The position numbers and the translations under genes are program-made. Positions 4,529 through 10,933 of a stretch of 18,284 nucleotides of DNA are shown here, in pieces (the stretch's first letter is position 1; each line of letters opens with the position of its first letter). Origin of the DNA: a virus. Lineage: Duplodnaviria > Heunggongvirae > Uroviricota > Caudoviricetes. The stretch lies in IMG/VR virus record IMGVR_UViG_2671180878_000013, positions 1-18,284 of that record. One strand, 5' to 3'. The notes below the pieces were generated by a model. It ran no database searches. It was not told where the DNA came from and saw only the letters and a program-made list of their open reading frames with translations.

Positions 4529-4684
4529 TTACTCCTCAGGTTCGTAAGCTGTGAAGACAGCGACCTCCGTCTGGCCGGTTCGGATTCGTACCTCGCAGAG
4601 GTCTTTCCTCGTTACCAGTGCCGTCACTATGACGGTTAAACAGATGACAATCAGGGCGATTAACATCGCCTTTTGCTGCTTCAT
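4529..4684 (-). CDS. hokD: Hok/Gef-family membrane toxin
   Basis: 51-aa product MKQQKAMLIALIVICLTVIVTALVTRKDLCEVRIRTGQTEVAVFTAYEPEE matches recalled HokD/RelF almost exactly. AAGGAG lies 9 nt upstream of the ATG at 4684. Confidence 0.85.
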   Translation of the reverse strand: MKQQKAMLIALIVICLTVIVTALVTRKDLCEVRIRTGQTEVAVFTAYEPEE

Positions 4685-4917
4685 AGCCTGCTTCTCCTTG
4701 CCTTTCGGCACGTAAGAGGCTAACCTACATGTGCAAAGCATGAAATTGGCCTCAGATTAATGTTAAGCGTCCTGCAAGACGCGTAATGTTAACTGGGGCT
4801 TTTCTCTGTCTGCCTTACGGCGGCATGCCCGAGGCAGACAGCCTCAAGCACCCGCAGCAATTCTACTTAACTCTTCTTTCCCCGCAAATCATTTTATCCC
4901 CGATGGTAATGTTCTCC

Positions 4918-5507: not shown

Positions 5508-5671
5508 GATAACGCCCTCTGGTTGATGAATTTAACTATCACCACCTTCAGGTCTCAATCATCAGGTGGCGAGACGTACAGGGTTGAGACTACCGGATCA
5601 ACCAACCGGCCAGCCTTTCGGCTGCCCCATACGCCTCACCATAATTCAGATGTGCGTGCGCATACGACAAT

Positions 5672-5693
5672 AAAAAACACGCTCGCGGCGTGT
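5672..5693 (-). terminator. Candidate tR2-like Rho-independent terminator on the minus strand
   Basis: Stem acacgc/gcgtgt with 5-nt loop; on the minus strand it is followed by TTTTT. It sits between the replication/accessory genes and the ORF6N gene. Confidence 0.35.
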
Positions 5694-5778
5694 GTCTGTC
5701 GCGGTTGAATATCCGGGGTCTCAATCCCGACGGTCAACTCGACCGTGCGGTGAATATAGCCCCGGATTAGTAATTACG

Positions 5779-6899: not shown

Positions 6900-7565
6900 T
6901 CAGACAAAACCAGCCGCTTTCCGGCGTTCATACTCCTGTTTCAGCAACTCAATTGGCGTTGGTCCCAACGGGCGTTTTGGTGCCGCCAGTTGTCGCCGTA
7001 CTGGCGGAACGCTCAGGCCGTTACTAACATGCTTTGCCCATTTCGTCAGCTGCCGTTCTGCAAGCCGTTTTAATTCCCCTTCGGTCATCTGGCGTTCAAT
7101 CCCCTCTGAACGCATCTCGAGGCAAATGTGATACAGCACAGGCTGAGGCCACGGATATTTGTCGCTTCCGTTATATCGCCAGGACTCATTACGCCAGCGG
7201 CGATACTCCTCCATCACAGCATCCACCGTCAGGCCAAATGGATTGGCCCCGCTTTCCGAAATCAGCGCCACAAACTCAGCCAGGTCCGGAGGCCATGTTT
7301 CACCCGCCCGGCAGCGGTCCATGCACTGGCGGCAGACCTGCCGGATTTGCTGCTCAGTCATCGCGCCAATCTGTGCAATCCAGAGCTTCGAAGGTGCGGC
7401 CCCGTTCTTCTGGGTCCAGCGGTTCGAATAAACCTCCCCCATGAGTTCCCACAGCTTCCAGGCCGTTTCCGTCGCTGATAAATCCGTTTTCACGTTCCCA
7501 CTGCTCACGTGCTGCCCGAATTTCCTGAACTGCCCGTGATGCGGTGCCACCTGGTGCTGCTGCAT
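6900..7565 (-). CDS. Lambda P-like replication protein (helicase loader)
   Basis: The C-terminal two thirds resemble recalled lambda P (YPWPQPVLYHICLEMRSEGI..., GELKRLAERQL...). Start is uncertain: the frame is open to 7565, while an ATG at 7361 overlaps the O-like stop by 8 nt. Confidence 0.6.
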   Translation of the reverse strand: MQQHQVAPHHGQFRKFGQHVSSGNVKTDLSATETAWKLWELMGEVYSNRWTQKNGAAPSKLWIAQIGAMTEQQIRQVCRQCMDRCRAGETWPPDLAEFVALISESGANPFGLTVDAVMEEYRRWRNESWRYNGSDKYPWPQPVLYHICLEMRSEGIERQMTEGELKRLAERQLTKWAKHVSNGLSVPPVRRQLAAPKRPLGPTPIELLKQEYERRKAAGFV

Positions 7566-8394
7566 GGTTTACCCCCTTGCTGACTGGTTTAACCTGCGCC
7601 CTGACGTGATTTACGTGACGGGCGAATTTCTGCTCCCACTGAATCTGCGTAAACACTTTCCCCTCCGCTGCCCAGTAGTCCCGGAATGCGGTAAGTTCAG
7701 CAGGTGTAAATTCTGTCTCCGGCAAAGCCATCCCCCACAACGCAGCCCGTCGTCGAAAATCCCGTGACGGATACCAGCTATCGGTCATCGGAAATTTTCC
7801 GATGGGTTCGCTCAGGCCATCCAGGAATACATGGGGGGCTGCCTGTAACGACAAAACTTCCTGCTCACTGATCGGAGCACTCTCGCGTGCGTTATGTGTG
7901 GGGTTTAGATCTTTGGGTTCCTTTGGGTTCCGTGATCCGTTTTTGGGTGTCTTTGATGGAAAATTTGGGTGTCTTTGGTTATTTTCCATGCAACAAAGAG
8001 TTCCGTTTTTGGGGCTCTTTTGTGCTGAAACATAACCGTTTTCGGTACTGTTTTTATTAACAGCACCAATTTTACCCACCTTTAAAGACACCCGTTTTTG
8101 GGTGTATTCAGGCTCGGCAACACTTTCTTCTACACCGATAAGTCGGTACACCACAATTTGCTTTGTTCTGCCTTTTCTCTCACCGGTATCAACAATTAAC
8201 CCAATCTCCATCAGGTGTCGTAAGCTGTCCTGCACAGTCTTTTTGTTCAGTTCCGTTACTTCTGCCAGTGCAGATACAGACGGGTATGCACACAAATCGG
8301 CACCGCACATATCAGCAAGCCAGGTCAATACAGACTTACTGGATGAACTGCCGGTTTTCACCTTTTTAGCCCATCGTAGTGCATCGATACTCAT
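7354..8394 (-). CDS. Replication initiator (lambda O analogue): N-terminal HTH, linker encoding the origin, C-terminal DnaT-like domain
   Basis: N-terminus MSIDALRWAKKV...SVSALAEVTELNKKTVQDSLRHLMEIGLI is HTH-like. C-terminal segment GKFPMTDSWYPSRDFRRRAALWGMALPETEFTPAELTAFRDYWAAEGKVFTQIQWEQKFAR matches the recalled E. coli DnaT C-terminus. AGGGG lies upstream of the ATG at 8394. Confidence 0.75.
   Translation of the reverse strand: MSIDALRWAKKVKTGSSSSKSVLTWLADMCGADLCAYPSVSALAEVTELNKKTVQDSLRHLMEIGLIVDTGERKGRTKQIVVYRLIGVEESVAEPEYTQKRVSLKVGKIGAVNKNSTENGYVSAQKSPKNGTLCCMENNQRHPNFPSKTPKNGSRNPKEPKDLNPTHNARESAPISEQEVLSLQAAPHVFLDGLSEPIGKFPMTDSWYPSRDFRRRAALWGMALPETEFTPAELTAFRDYWAAEGKVFTQIQWEQKFARHVNHVRAQVKPVSKGVNHAAAPGGTASRAVQEIRAAREQWERENGFISDGNGLEAVGTHGGGLFEPLDPEERGRTFEALDCTDWRDD
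7911..8103. repeat. Origin of replication: iteron array plus AT-rich region inside the initiator gene
   Basis: Tandem ctttgggttc x2 (7911-7930); tttgggtgtctttg at 7942-7955 and 7964-7977; TTTGGG(T/G) cores again at 8007-8013 and 8096-8102; inverted copy aaagacacccg at 8083-8093; AT-rich block 8030-8080. Coincides with the PKNG-rich linker of the initiator. Confidence 0.7.
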
Positions 8395-8917
8395 ACGAAC
8401 CCCTGGCAGATATTTGTTTATCTGCAAAGTAATATTGATACTGCTGACGATACGCATGCTTGAAAGCAATAGCTTTTTCTATAAGCTCGTCAGTCTCACG
8501 TTCCACAACAGATGGATCCGCAAAAAGCAGTCCGGACTCCACCACATCGCCATATTCTTTGTTTAACCCGGCGATCATGTACGTGATGCTTTTTCCGTCA
8601 CTAATTTCACGATACAACCTGAAATCATTAATCCGGATAGCCTCCATAATTGCAGGCACTAGCGCCGTGAACTTTTCACGCTTATCCCTGGTGTCGATAG
8701 CCTTCCAGCGTTCGAATATCTTCACTCGATTAACGCCAAGCGCTCGCTGATCAACCGCGCCACCTTCATCTGTGACACGCTGAACATCGATGTTCGGGCG
8801 CTCTTTCAAAACCCAGAATGCTTCAGTGATTAATATCGTCGCCTGCTCCTGTGTCATTCCTGGTCGACATATCCAGGCATCCAGAGCCTCACGAGCCTGT
8901 TCAGGAGTGATTTTCAT
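8366..8917 (-). CDS. Hypothetical early protein at the cII position (possibly YdaT-like)
   Basis: 183-aa ORF between the cro-like and initiator genes. The family assignment rests on position only and is weak. Confidence 0.4.
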   Translation of the reverse strand: MKITPEQAREALDAWICRPGMTQEQATILITEAFWVLKERPNIDVQRVTDEGGAVDQRALGVNRVKIFERWKAIDTRDKREKFTALVPAIMEAIRINDFRLYREISDGKSITYMIAGLNKEYGDVVESGLLFADPSVVERETDELIEKAIAFKHAYRQQYQYYFADKQISARGSYEYRCTTMG

Positions 8918-9057
8918 TGTTCAACCGCCCCGCCCGCTTTGCCTTACGATATTCGTCATAAACTTTGGGGTCGTACTGAAGTTCCCCGCCGGATGCCTCT
9001 TGCAGGCGCATCGCGCGACCTTCAGGAACTAGCTCTTGCCATTGAGAAACAGCAGAT
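8901..9057 (-). CDS. Cro-like (YdaS-type) HTH protein, C-terminal fragment; N-terminus lost in the gap
   Basis: Minus-strand translation adjoining the gap reads ...SAVSQWQELVPEGRAMRLQEASGGEL..., resembling the end of an XRE-type HTH. It is divergent from the repressor-like gene. Confidence 0.35.
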
Positions 9058-9081
9058 NNNNNNNNNNNNNNNNNNNNNNNN
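9058..9081. other. Assembly gap: 24 N of unknown true length
   Basis: A run of N in the sequence. Both flanking genes lack N-termini, so the gap must stand for several hundred missing bases covering the divergent repressor/cro promoter-operator region. Confidence 0.9.
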
Positions 9082-9082
9082 C

Positions 9083-9331
9083 GCCGAGGTATTGCAATGT
9101 TCACCAACCTGGATACTGTTTGGCGACGAGGACAAAACACCAGCTCCCCCTGTTTCACTCGATAGTACCCTAGACTTATCGGAAGATGAGTTAGAGATGC
9201 TGCGTTTGTATCGCGCACTTCCTAAATCAGAGCAACAAGCACAACTCAGCGAACTCCGCGCCCGCGTTGAGAATTTTAATCGCCTGTTCACCGAGCTATT
9301 AGAGGCTCGCAAACGCAACAAGCATCAATAA
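9083..9331 (+). CDS. dicA: DicA-like (cI-analogue) repressor, C-terminal fragment; N-terminal HTH lies in the gap
   Basis: (A)EVLQCSPTWILFGDEDKTPAPPV...LSEDELEMLRLYRALPKSEQQAQLSELRARVENFNRLFTELLEARKRNKHQ matches the recalled C-terminal half of E. coli DicA. Confidence 0.7.
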   Translation, partial: AEVLQCSPTWILFGDEDKTPAPPVSLDSTLDLSEDELEMLRLYRALPKSEQQAQLSELRARVENFNRLFTELLEARKRNKHQ

Positions 9332-9418: not shown

Positions 9419-9473
9419 TTGACGAAAAATAATGAGAAAACTAAATTATCTCCATCAACACACCGCACGGTGT
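9419..9473 (+). promoter_or_regulatory. Candidate promoter of the dicB-type operon with a downstream palindromic operator
   Basis: -35 TTGACG (9419-9424), 17-nt spacer, -10 TAAATT (9442-9447), then the 14-bp palindrome ACACCGCACGGTGT (9460-9473). Confidence 0.45.
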
Positions 9474-9523: not shown

Positions 9524-9676
9524 ATGGATACGCTCAATCTTGGCAACAACGAATCTCTGGTATGCGGAGTATTCTCCAACCTGGACGGCACGTTTACCGC
9601 GATGACGTATACCAGAAGCAAAACGTTTAAAACGGAAGCTGGCGCGCGTCGCTGGTTAGCAAGAAACTCTGACTGA
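9524..9676 (+). CDS. ydfA: YdfA-like small protein
   Basis: 50-aa product MDTLNLGNNESLVCGVFSNLDGTFTAMTYTRSKTFKTEAGARRWLARNSD, first gene after the repressor as in Qin; GAGG upstream of the ATG. Confidence 0.7.
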   Translation: MDTLNLGNNESLVCGVFSNLDGTFTAMTYTRSKTFKTEAGARRWLARNSD

Positions 9677-10326
9677 TGAGGTTGACGATGGAATTTAAAG
9701 ATTTACCTCCTTCAATCCAGGAGATTGCAGCACACACACTTCGTCATCGTCTGAACGAACTTGAATTGGAATCGGTAACGAAAAAAGACACTGATAATAT
9801 GGCTCGTAATGTGCGCGATGCGTTTACCGGATTGTATTTCTGTGCGTCTATAAATAAACACGACTCAGAGAGTGTGGCAAATAAAATTGCAGAAACGACA
9901 GCGCAAAACATCAATACGAAACCAACGGAAGAAGAAATTGATCAGTTTGCTCATGATGCTGGTTTAAAAAACAAGAAAGAAAAATCGCCATATGCGGGGA
10001 ACATGTTTGTTTATGACAATCTCATCAGAATTCGTGGCGAAATTCCGGCGGAATACCTGGCAAGAGTCCATCAGGCATTGCTTAAAAATTTGGAAACAGA
10101 ATTATTTGATGGCAACACTAACGGTTTCTTCATGGTATCAGGCCTTGAGAAAGACTGGGATGCAGAAAAACGCTGGAATGTTGCTACATGGTTATTCAGT
10201 AACAGAGCCGCTGCACTGGAAGCTTCGGCATGTATTTGCGGCCTGTTCTTAACAGACCACAAATATAATCTGGATGTGTACAGTTATATTTACGCTGAAC
10301 ACGGTCCACTCTGGATTGACTGGTAA
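9676..10326 (+). CDS. Hypothetical 216-aa protein, or 212 aa from the ATG at 9688; family not recognised
   Basis: ATG at 9676 overlaps the ydfA stop as TGATG; the alternative ATG at 9688 has GAGG 6 nt upstream. Sits where Qin has ydfB/ydfC. Confidence 0.6.
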   Translation: MRLTMEFKDLPPSIQEIAAHTLRHRLNELELESVTKKDTDNMARNVRDAFTGLYFCASINKHDSESVANKIAETTAQNINTKPTEEEIDQFAHDAGLKNKKEKSPYAGNMFVYDNLIRIRGEIPAEYLARVHQALLKNLETELFDGNTNGFFMVSGLEKDWDAEKRWNVATWLFSNRAAALEASACICGLFLTDHKYNLDVYSYIYAEHGPLWIDW

Positions 10327-10536
10327 TTATAAGGAAACACCAGCAGGGCCGCGGCGACCAACAGAACGATTAAAATCAATAATGCCATTATAAAGGACAT
10401 TATTTAATTTATCGTCGAATGCTGATTCTGTGAGCCTCAACTCTGAATGAGTTTTTAATAACCCTGATTGCCTGAGTTGATTTACCAGGCATTCAATCTG
10501 TTTTTCAATAAGCGGATTTCTTTTTTTGTTTGGCAT
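10327..10536 (-). CDS. Hypothetical 69-aa protein, convergent with and abutting the 212-aa gene
   Basis: ATG at 10536 preceded by GGAGGA. Its stop codon directly abuts the stop of the plus-strand gene. Product MPNKKRNPLIEKQIECLVNQLRQSGLL... not recognised. Confidence 0.45.
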   Translation of the reverse strand: MPNKKRNPLIEKQIECLVNQLRQSGLLKTHSELRLTESAFDDKLNNVLYNGIIDFNRSVGRRGPAGVSL

Positions 10537-10874
10537 TTTATCCTCCATTGAGGTTCTGGGTTAAAAATGGAGACCAACACGCTGTCACGTGTGGTCGTGC
10601 GCCGGACACGGATAAGAATCCGGTACTGACAGTTTACTGAAAGGATATTTCCCTGAAAAGTCAGTGCATAACGCGAAAGCGTACGGCGAAGCTCTTTCCC
10701 TTAGAAGGCTTGTCGTTAGATTTCTTCGAACGTGCGCTTCCGGTTGTGGCACTCCGCGAAATGGCGCGGCGGTAAGTATGGCGGGGTTATTCCTTCCCCA
10801 GTTGAGGACACCGGGTTGTCAGGTTGACCATACGCTTAAGTGACAACCCCGCTACAACGCCCTCTGTTATCAAT

Positions 10875-10933
10875 ATTCTGGTGACATTTGGCGGTATCAG
10901 TTTTACTCCGTGACTGCTCTGCCGCCCTTTTTT
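10875..10933 (+). ncRNA. dicF: DicF small RNA (ftsZ-targeting sRNA of the dicB operon)
   Basis: attctggtgacatttggcggtatcagttttactccgtgactgctctgccgccctttttt matches recalled E. coli DicF, including the terminator hairpin and T-run. Ends are approximate. Confidence 0.8.

Follow-up and report, generated by a model that had tools for sequence, protein, structure and literature searches.

The closest described counterpart of the locus studied here is the dicBF operon of the Qin prophage of Escherichia coli K-12. Its transcript spans from upstream of ydfA through dicF, and its promoter, dicBp, fires spontaneously in a subpopulation of cells, the operon being toxic (PMC10448788). DicF, DicB, and YdfD are host-toxic products of the operon (PMC5069750, PMC10448788). 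YdfB and YdfC are proteins of unknown function in the dicBF literature, where nonconserved genes of enterohemorrhagic E. coli (EHEC) are also shown without comment (PMC5069750). The DNA analyzed here, referred to as the window, is the whole 18,284-nt stretch of IMG/VR virus record IMGVR_UViG_2671180878_000013. This DNA is a lambdoid prophage that occupies the Qin site of K-12, next to rspB, and between ydfA and DicF it carries a large gene (212 codons) and a small gene (69 codons) that face each other (Table 1). Comparison of this locus across prophages indicates that the two genes probably form a working two-protein accessory module.

Both genes encode conserved proteins of no described family

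A sequence-only reading of the window had proposed an unassigned gene of 212 to 216 aa and a convergent 69-aa gene with an abutting stop, and both were borne out by the sequence and by RefSeq annotation. Read from its upstream start, the large open reading frame (ORF) (9676 to 10326, plus strand) is 216 aa long, and the ydfA stop overlaps this alternative ATG. The small ORF (10327 to 10548, minus strand) is 73 aa at full length, with a GGAGG sequence 5 nt upstream of the annotated start at 10536. The stops touch: the TAA of the large gene (10324 to 10326) is followed directly by TTA (10327 to 10329), the stop of the small gene. The pairwise ratios of nonsynonymous to synonymous substitution rates (dN/dS) were 0.07 to 0.27 for the small gene and 0.25 to 0.6 for the large gene, which indicates that both encode proteins under purifying selection.

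The same reading could place neither protein in a family, and our searches agree. PHROG profiles cover both proteins end to end (phrog_2151, E 1.8e-147, 212/212; phrog_4274, E 1.2e-51, 69/69), and both PHROGs are families of function unknown. Neither protein matched Pfam, NCBIfam, or PADLOC, no known or candidate defense model of PADLOC-DB v2 among them, and profile searches of PDB sequences returned only noise. The large protein is named Ybl81 in some E. coli records; a literature search turned up no paper on either protein.

Among 5,426 complete E. coli genomes, the small gene was present in 598 and the large gene in 597 at a coverage of at least 80% (∼11%). The listed matches were mostly O157:H7, O103, O111, and O145, which are Shiga-toxin lineages, and the 1.6 kb around the gene pair is 100% identical to chromosomes of Shiga toxin-producing E. 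coli, e.g., NZ_CP037943.1. Homologues of the pair are limited to Escherichia and Salmonella.

The C-terminal domain and the small gene stay together in different prophages

The large protein has three parts. Residues 1 to ∼50 form a shared N-terminal module, MEFKDLP...F(T/I)GLY (FTGLY in the window), residues ∼50 to 98 are a low-complexity linker, and residues ∼99 to 212 (nt ∼9982 to 10323) form a conserved acidic alpha/beta domain of ∼115 aa, referred to as the C-terminal domain (CTD). A profile search with the large protein in 1.84 billion representative proteins gave different sets of matches for its domains. The first ∼50 to 90 residues were found on dozens of proteins of 42 to 200 aa with unrelated C termini, and the CTD (residues ∼100 to 200) was found in one full-length cluster and in P0175 and P0188, two distant proteins of 286 and 220 aa whose N termini are unlike that of the window protein and whose CTD is 27 to 31% identical to it. 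The N-terminal module is also present in deposited phage genomes, in the early region of Stx2a-converting phages (e.g., a 147-aa protein of phage PA2), and a tblastn search of 50,697 such genomes found neither the CTD nor the small protein. Several allelic versions of the module (9688 to 9840 in the window) recombine independently of the CTD.

The genes for P0175 and P0188 lie directly after the integrase, repressor, and Cox genes in P2-like or hybrid prophages, and downstream of each, in convergent orientation, lies a gene of 64 or 69 aa that is clearly homologous to the window small gene. These small proteins, for which NCBI names Salmonella enterica, are 42 to 52% identical to the window protein and have in common with it the conserved motifs SGLLK and, at the C terminus, RRGxPAGxxL. 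The 3′ ends of the Salmonella pairs overlap by 11 or 53 nt. A third context was found in other Salmonella prophages, where the CTD is encoded by a gene of its own (∼125 aa), with a convergent small gene abutting it downstream and the N-terminal module as an independent gene on the opposite flank. Synonymous sites have reached saturation between these lineages; therefore, the linkage of the CTD to the small gene is old, and it persists although the neighborhood is highly mosaic. The sequence-only reading had put the pair forward as a candidate accessory system, and the pair does behave as a unit, since it stays together in unrelated prophage backbones.

The IMG/VR loci show the same association. 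The small gene was present in 73 of the 77 loci that have a CTD and room for a neighbor, always in convergent orientation, and, conversely, a full CTD accompanied the small gene wherever it was found (73 of 73 loci). In 70 of them, the two stops are in exact contact, across alleles that are 82 to 100% identical. Of the four exceptions, one has a truncated CTD (L088) and three belong to a single allele group in which 162 nt are deleted inside the small gene, leaving an intact large ORF that ends in ...WIDWFKG. Thus, orphan CTD alleles with an intact ORF exist, whereas no orphan small gene was seen in the 73 loci.

Two details of these sequences deserve mention. In L248 and L249 (3214 to 3591, minus strand of the locus), the stand-alone CTD gene (∼125 aa, MRLTMESKQAEE...) that adjoins the small gene is missing from the called-gene table of those Salmonella assemblies and is intact by translation. 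In the window, a GC-rich palindrome, GCCGCGGC (10339 to 10358), lies within the codons for the C-terminal RRGPAG of the small protein, so the opposite strand reads PAGPRR, and frameshifted variants of the large gene (P0158) run into PAGPRR.

Predicted fold and charge of the two proteins

AlphaFold2 gave a poor model of the full-length large protein, with a predicted local distance difference test (pLDDT) score of 54. The CTD alone, with the distant homologues in the alignment, was modeled at a pLDDT of 78 and a predicted template modeling score of 0.72, with the topology b-b-a-b-b-a-b. A Foldseek search of this model against BFVD and PDB returned nothing below E 1e-3. The top Foldseek names were Prp/YsxB-like cysteine proteases; this assignment was rejected because P0175 and P0188 do not conserve the His and Cys residues present in the E. 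coli family. Most positions that are invariant among the distant homologues hold a hydrophobic residue, Gly, Pro, Asn, or Asp; an FDGxxNGxF loop is also conserved, and the conserved positions showed no obvious catalytic set. P0175 carries an inserted XRE-type helix-turn-helix (HTH) domain (Pfam HTH_3, 26.2 bits versus a cutoff of 23), which was the only match of the distant homologues in Pfam, NCBIfam, and PADLOC.

The charges of the two proteins are complementary in every lineage. The isoelectric point (pI) of the acidic CTD is 5.0 in the window and 4.6 to 5.3 across lineages, and that of the basic small protein is 9.5 to 9.9, with one allele at 7.9. Both proteins are hydrophilic (grand average of hydropathy, −0.5), and no membrane segments were predicted in the small protein.

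A variable slot with two conserved facing entry points

The DNA is homologous to K-12 from 9453 to a point shortly past ydfA (∼9670) and again from ∼10596. Between these two stretches, there is no DNA homology to Qin, and comparison of YdfB and YdfC with the window proteins by BLASTP gave E 3.9, no alignment, and E 0.16. The suggestion that ydfB and ydfC had been replaced here was therefore right in that Qin homology is broken and the products do not resemble YdfB or YdfC. However, this replacement is only one of several mosaic outcomes. The pair is a common allele (597 to 598 of the 5,426 genomes), not a one-off break of the Qin order, and in one genome ydfB is kept and ydfC alone is replaced.

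The interval from ydfA to the conserved leader was surveyed in 80 IMG/VR loci that encode YdfA, and both borders were found in 71. The interval ranged from 84 to 920 nt and held at least 10 cassettes among the 71 loci (window, 9676 to 10596; loci L163 to L242), which agrees with the expectation of the earlier reading that it might be a variable cargo slot. In a recurrent type of cassette, a plus-strand gene consisting of the shared N-terminal module and an unrelated C terminus (101 to 212 aa) faces a convergent minus-strand gene (61 to 105 aa), and the 3′ ends either overlap (by 11 to 41 nt) or abut, except in one case with a gap of 80 nt. Minus-strand genes alone make up another set of cassettes; their products are a 148-aa protein that has hydrophobic segments, a 163-aa coiled-coil protein ending in a zinc-ribbon-like part, and a 106-aa membrane-like protein. 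The remaining cassettes are ydfB/ydfC as in K-12 or empty. Eight alternative cargo proteins of the slot had no Pfam or PADLOC match. The suggestion of the earlier reading that superinfection exclusion or defense cargo might lie here thus gained no support, since PADLOC matched neither the pair nor these alternatives. The different minus-strand cargo genes have the same leader up to the start codon, and K-12 keeps most of this leader without a cargo gene. On sequence comparison, the slot is a site with two conserved facing entry points: a shared start and N-terminal module on the plus strand and a shared structured leader on the minus strand.

On its right, the slot is bordered by a GC-rich, strongly structured noncoding stretch that precedes DicF (minimum free energy, −132 kcal/mol; z, −3.6) and corresponds to the “long untranslated region” of the dicBF operon (PMC5069750). 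An Rfam search of this stretch gave no family, and covariation over 41 distinct copies of the pre-DicF leader did not decide which strand bears the selected structure. The P2-like prophages of Salmonella in which the distant pair lies also have this stretch, at 81% identity across ∼200 nt, and Rfam found no DicF downstream in these Salmonella contexts. At the DicF position, L006 (∼7379 to 7425) and L007 (∼7372 to 7420) have a short sequence that differs from DicF and has at its end a terminator-like hairpin, GCAGGAAGGGGCGCCTGC, and UUUUUAU. This sequence may be a small RNA (sRNA) with another seed.

The small gene as a proposed separate, overlapping transcription unit

A scan found no terminator between the two genes. 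Since the K-12 dicBF transcript also runs on through dicF (PMC10448788), transcription of the early operon must cross the small gene in the antisense direction, just as the sequence-only reading had expected. In the opposite direction, a stem-loop of 14 to 15 bp in the minus-strand RNA probably marks the 3′ end of the small-gene transcript or terminates it. Three allelic versions of this stem-loop differ at stem positions, and pairing of the minus strand is kept through G·U pairs; the same helices are 3.6 to 7.2 kcal/mol weaker on the plus strand in the three alleles. The Salmonella homologues have, in an analogous place, a GC stem of 8 to 10 bp followed by UUUCAUAUUUAUUU. This stem and U-tract have the shape of an intrinsic terminator that would be effective for the minus strand only. 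We infer that the small gene is transcribed as a unit of its own, into an RNA that overlaps the 3′ end of the large-gene mRNA.

The 5′ leader of the small gene is predicted to form three helices, HP1 to HP3. HP2 has four different sequences in four lineages, and pairing is kept in all of them. HP3, the helix that would cover the Shine-Dalgarno (SD) sequence, occurs in the predicted fold of both Salmonella leaders, and the leader with its SD-covering helix is conserved, including in the Salmonella homologues. A weak promoter candidate was noted by eye just upstream of HP1, and no LexA box was seen by eye upstream of the small gene. As for the earlier suggestion of antisense control, the antisense layout was upheld; however, purely antisense control is unlikely because the small ORF is conserved as a protein.

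A proposed coupled protein pair and the alternatives to it

Our preferred explanation, which we hold tentatively, is that the two genes form a self-contained accessory cassette, one of many alternatives in a hypervariable slot of a repressor-controlled early (dicBF-type) operon, and that their products would bind each other as effector and antagonist, with mutually exclusive expression and the small protein as the effector. That the two proteins are functionally coupled in one polarity or the other is a broader claim and a fairly probable one. Under the preferred explanation, only the small gene could be expressed as long as the repressor held the early promoter off. When the early operon fired, upon induction or infection, polymerases would move antisense through the small gene, its mRNA would pair with the operon RNA, and the large protein would accumulate. 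Convergent transcription and the ∼95-nt 3′ overlap would thus make synthesis of the two partners mutually exclusive between the lysogenic and lytic states. The small basic protein would be an effector kept under tight control, with the host or phage development as its target, and the acidic domain would be an antagonist that the prophage makes for itself once lytic, an arrangement like that of sieB/esc/sas in P22. The FDGxxNGxF loop of the CTD and the RRGxPAGxxL tail of the small protein are candidate sites of contact between the two.

We lean toward the small protein as the effector because the leader can hide its ribosome-binding site (RBS), because orphan CTD alleles exist and no orphan small gene was seen, because the charge pattern fits, and because one CTD homologue carries an HTH domain. 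Sequestration of the SD sequence is typical of genes whose product must stay low, and HTH domains are often found on antitoxins and regulators. However, a number of observations weigh against this explanation. The polarity hints are indirect, and the usual size rule, by which the toxin is larger than the antidote, points to the opposite polarity. HP3 is not in the minimum-energy fold of the window leader, a promoter scan at a 9-of-12 threshold gave no sigma-70 site upstream of the small gene, and the literature search turned up no experiment or expression data on the pair. The pair is not obligatory, since the small gene is deleted and the large gene is intact in one widespread allele group, and facing genes are not always fixed or cognate partners, since the same 133-aa plus-strand gene has two different facing genes in L172 and L237.

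The reverse polarity, somewhat unlikely when taken by itself, is nearly as likely as the one that we prefer, which stands only slightly above it. Here, the wiring would be that of ionophoric colicins: the large protein would be an inducible early product that acts as an effector or toxin against the host or competitors, with a shared N-terminal module and a swappable C-terminal “warhead,” and the small gene, transcribed from its own promoter, would encode an immunity protein or antidote. The size ratio is consistent with toxin/antidote pairs, several cassettes of the slot repeat the pattern of a shared N terminus, variable C termini, and then a small partner gene, and repression in the lysogen would account for the tolerated orphan large gene. 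The immunity gene of ionophoric colicins also lies on the opposite strand with its own promoter (PMC9517006), and the neighboring products DicF, DicB, and YdfD are host toxic (PMC5069750, PMC10448788). However, the CTD has no catalytic-looking conserved residues, matches no toxin family or fold, and is also found without any N-terminal module, and an acidic CTD with a basic small protein is the opposite of most toxin/antitoxin pairs. Furthermore, antidote orphans should be common whereas none was seen in 73 loci, and a sequestered RBS would be unusual for a protective gene.

Two further explanations, in which the proteins are not partners, are less likely than a protein pair. The layout might be mainly regulatory, with convergent transcription and antisense overlap of the small gene dampening any leaky transcription that reaches the toxic dicF-dicB genes from the early promoter, or with the large protein as a lysis/lysogeny regulator at the CII position of P2/186-like phages. 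The cassette does separate the early promoter from dicF/dicB and has no terminator between its genes, dicBp of K-12 does fire spontaneously in a subpopulation to express a toxic operon (PMC10448788), one homologue with an HTH domain lies directly after cox, and the minus-strand leader is common to unrelated cargo genes. Yet pure interference would need neither the conservation of the small ORF as a protein, down to 42% identity, nor its low dN/dS (0.07 to 0.27). Most CTD homologues have no HTH domain, K-12 and many other cassettes do without a convergent gene, and the Salmonella contexts have no Rfam-detectable DicF downstream. A mainly regulatory role appears improbable. We consider it similarly improbable that the two are unrelated accessory genes with no functional coupling that move as a block between conserved recombination arms. 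The slot is highly mosaic with such arms (ydfA plus the N-terminal module on one side and the leader on the other), the adjoining noncoding leader has an 81% identical counterpart in the Salmonella loci, loss of the small gene does occur, and the L172 and L237 cassettes pair one plus-strand gene with two minus-strand genes. However, adjacency, convergence, and 3′ contact of the CTD and the small gene persist to synonymous saturation in three N-terminal contexts and two phage types, a span over which everything else in the slot was replaced. The consistently complementary charges and the lack of an orphan small gene in the 73 loci also argue against chance company.

A wider reading goes beyond the cassette itself, to a new prophage effector/antidote family built on convergent, 3′-overlapping transcripts together with an undescribed “two-port” cargo site. 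We regard it as doubtful. The switch between lysogenic and lytic transcription would flip which partner is made, and the plus port, which would fuse cargo to the shared N-terminal module, would face a minus port with a translation-gated leader. If true, the two-port site would be a reservoir of exclusion, defense, or host-takeover functions in EHEC and Salmonella prophages. In any case, the cassette is present in about one in nine complete E. coli genomes, in an operon that makes the cell division inhibitors DicF and DicB, and two facing entry points with at least 10 unrelated, unannotated cargo sets are a defined place in which to seek new prophage accessory functions.

Gene order and other features of the window

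From left to right, the window carries cro-like and ydaT-like genes on the minus strand, the HTH repressor gene, the promoter-like site, ydfA, and the large and small genes. To the right of the small gene are the GC-rich noncoding stretch, DicF, dicB, a ydfD homologue, a gene for an 823-aa exonuclease, xis, and int; the order DicF-dicB-ydfD is the same as in Qin, and YdfD is annotated as a lysis protein. The large gene lies inside the repressor-controlled early operon. The promoter-like site upstream of ydfA is likely the counterpart of the repressor-controlled dicBp early promoter, a role assigned from K-12 data (PMC10448788).

A 24-N run (9058 to 9081) hides part of the repressor gene, and the identical RefSeq locus has an intact 135-aa gene. 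The YdaT_toxin-family gene lies directly downstream of the cro-like gene (compare Rac-type immunity regions), and L001, the RefSeq locus that matches, has a RelE/ParE-family toxin gene annotated further upstream, beside an HTH gene. Further Rfam RNAs in the window are AgvB and STnc100 (22 to 290), three tRNAs (403 to 651), sok beside hokD (4679 to 4853), and C4 antisense RNA with isrK (5562 to 5746). A C4 RNA was also found in L007, near a “Derepression” family gene.

TABLE 1 Coordinates of the gene pair, its predicted RNA elements, and flanking features (window positions unless a locus is given)
Feature	Position	Strand	Evidence or remark
Large gene, 212 aa, PHROG 2151, WP_000394548.1 (hypothetical protein)	9688-10326	+	RefSeq start 9688
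Small gene, 69 aa, basic (pI 9.7), PHROG 4274, WP_001133037.1 (hypothetical protein)	10327-10536	-	RefSeq start 10536
Stem-loop in minus-strand RNA, 14-15 bp	10234-10264	-	63-93 nt past small-gene stop, inside coding 3′ end of large gene
Structured 5′ leader of small gene, ∼90 nt, three helices	10537-10625	-	
HP1, CCGGAU...UCCGG	10602-10623	-	
HP2	10572-10596	-	
HP3, CUCCAU paired with AUGGAG	10567-10572 with 10543-10548	-	Would cover Shine-Dalgarno sequence
Weak promoter candidate, TTTTCA-17-TAAACT, just upstream of HP1	∼10626-10655	-	By eye, 8 of 12
ydfA, DUF1391, 50 aa, left border of slot	9524-9676	+	Pfam PF07151, E 1.6e-28; annotation
GC-rich, strongly structured noncoding stretch, right border of slot, precedes DicF	10597-10875	+	
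Salmonella counterparts of pre-DicF stretch	L006 7104-7378; L007 7105-7371; L010 6864-7098		
DicF sRNA, same early operon, downstream	10876-10927	+	Rfam RF00039, 77 bits
Promoter-like site, TTGACG-17-TAAATT, upstream of ydfA	9419-9447	+	Consensus match
HTH repressor gene (dicA counterpart)	8939-9331		
YdaT_toxin-family gene	8366-8917	-	Pfam E 1.1e-5

Comparison with known systems

The position of the pair is that of ydfB/ydfC in Qin: both lie downstream of a DicA-repressed promoter, between ydfA and the DicF-bearing untranslated region, with homologous flanks. However, the pair has no sequence similarity to ydfB/ydfC, and one of its genes is on the opposite strand. In type II toxin-antitoxin (TA) systems, two codirectional genes, which mostly overlap, form one autoregulated operon, whereas the genes here are convergent in all homologous loci, and neither protein belongs to a recognized toxin or antitoxin superfamily. 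A type II toxin arrests growth and is neutralized when its partner binds it; the feature of the pair that bears on such binding is its complementary charge.

The txpA/RatA and bsrG/SR4 pairs of Bacillus subtilis are prophage-borne, convergent type I TA systems with RNAs overlapping at their 3′ ends. The pair resembles them in its convergent units, its predicted 3′-overlapping RNAs, and a structured leader that can hide the RBS of one partner. It differs in that the antisense partner is a conserved protein-coding gene instead of a noncoding RNA and in that neither product is a small hydrophobic peptide. The sieB-esc-sas region of P22 and lambda and the oop/cII arrangement of lambda also place an accessory function in an early operon by the immunity region, with antisense transcription that tunes, during phage growth, a function expressed in the lysogen. 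SieB is a membrane protein, Esc comes from the same ORF, and oop is noncoding; none of these is homologous to the pair.

Like the polymorphic toxins CdiA-CT/CdiI and Rhs, the plus-strand proteins of the slot have a conserved N terminus up to a fixed junction, …F(T/I)GLY, followed by unrelated C termini and a small neighboring gene. Unlike them, they are tiny (about 100 to 210 aa) and intracellular, have no secretion or trafficking domains, face a convergent partner, and have a CTD that also occurs alone or on another N terminus. Operons of pore-forming colicins (PMC9517006) have a similar layout, in which a repressor-controlled modular gene stands tail to tail with a small gene on the opposite strand. 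However, there is no homology (no Pfam match), there are no translocation or receptor domains, a phage repressor takes the place of LexA, and for the own promoter of the opposite-strand gene only a weak candidate is found here. Colicin immunity proteins are also membrane proteins, whereas the small protein here is hydrophilic and basic. Set against all of these systems, the pair is an uncharacterized prophage accessory pair of unusual architecture that is not categorically new and not yet a defense system. If it is an effector/antidote pair, it would add a protein-protein, convergent-antisense design to the ways in which prophages leash toxic or exclusion genes.

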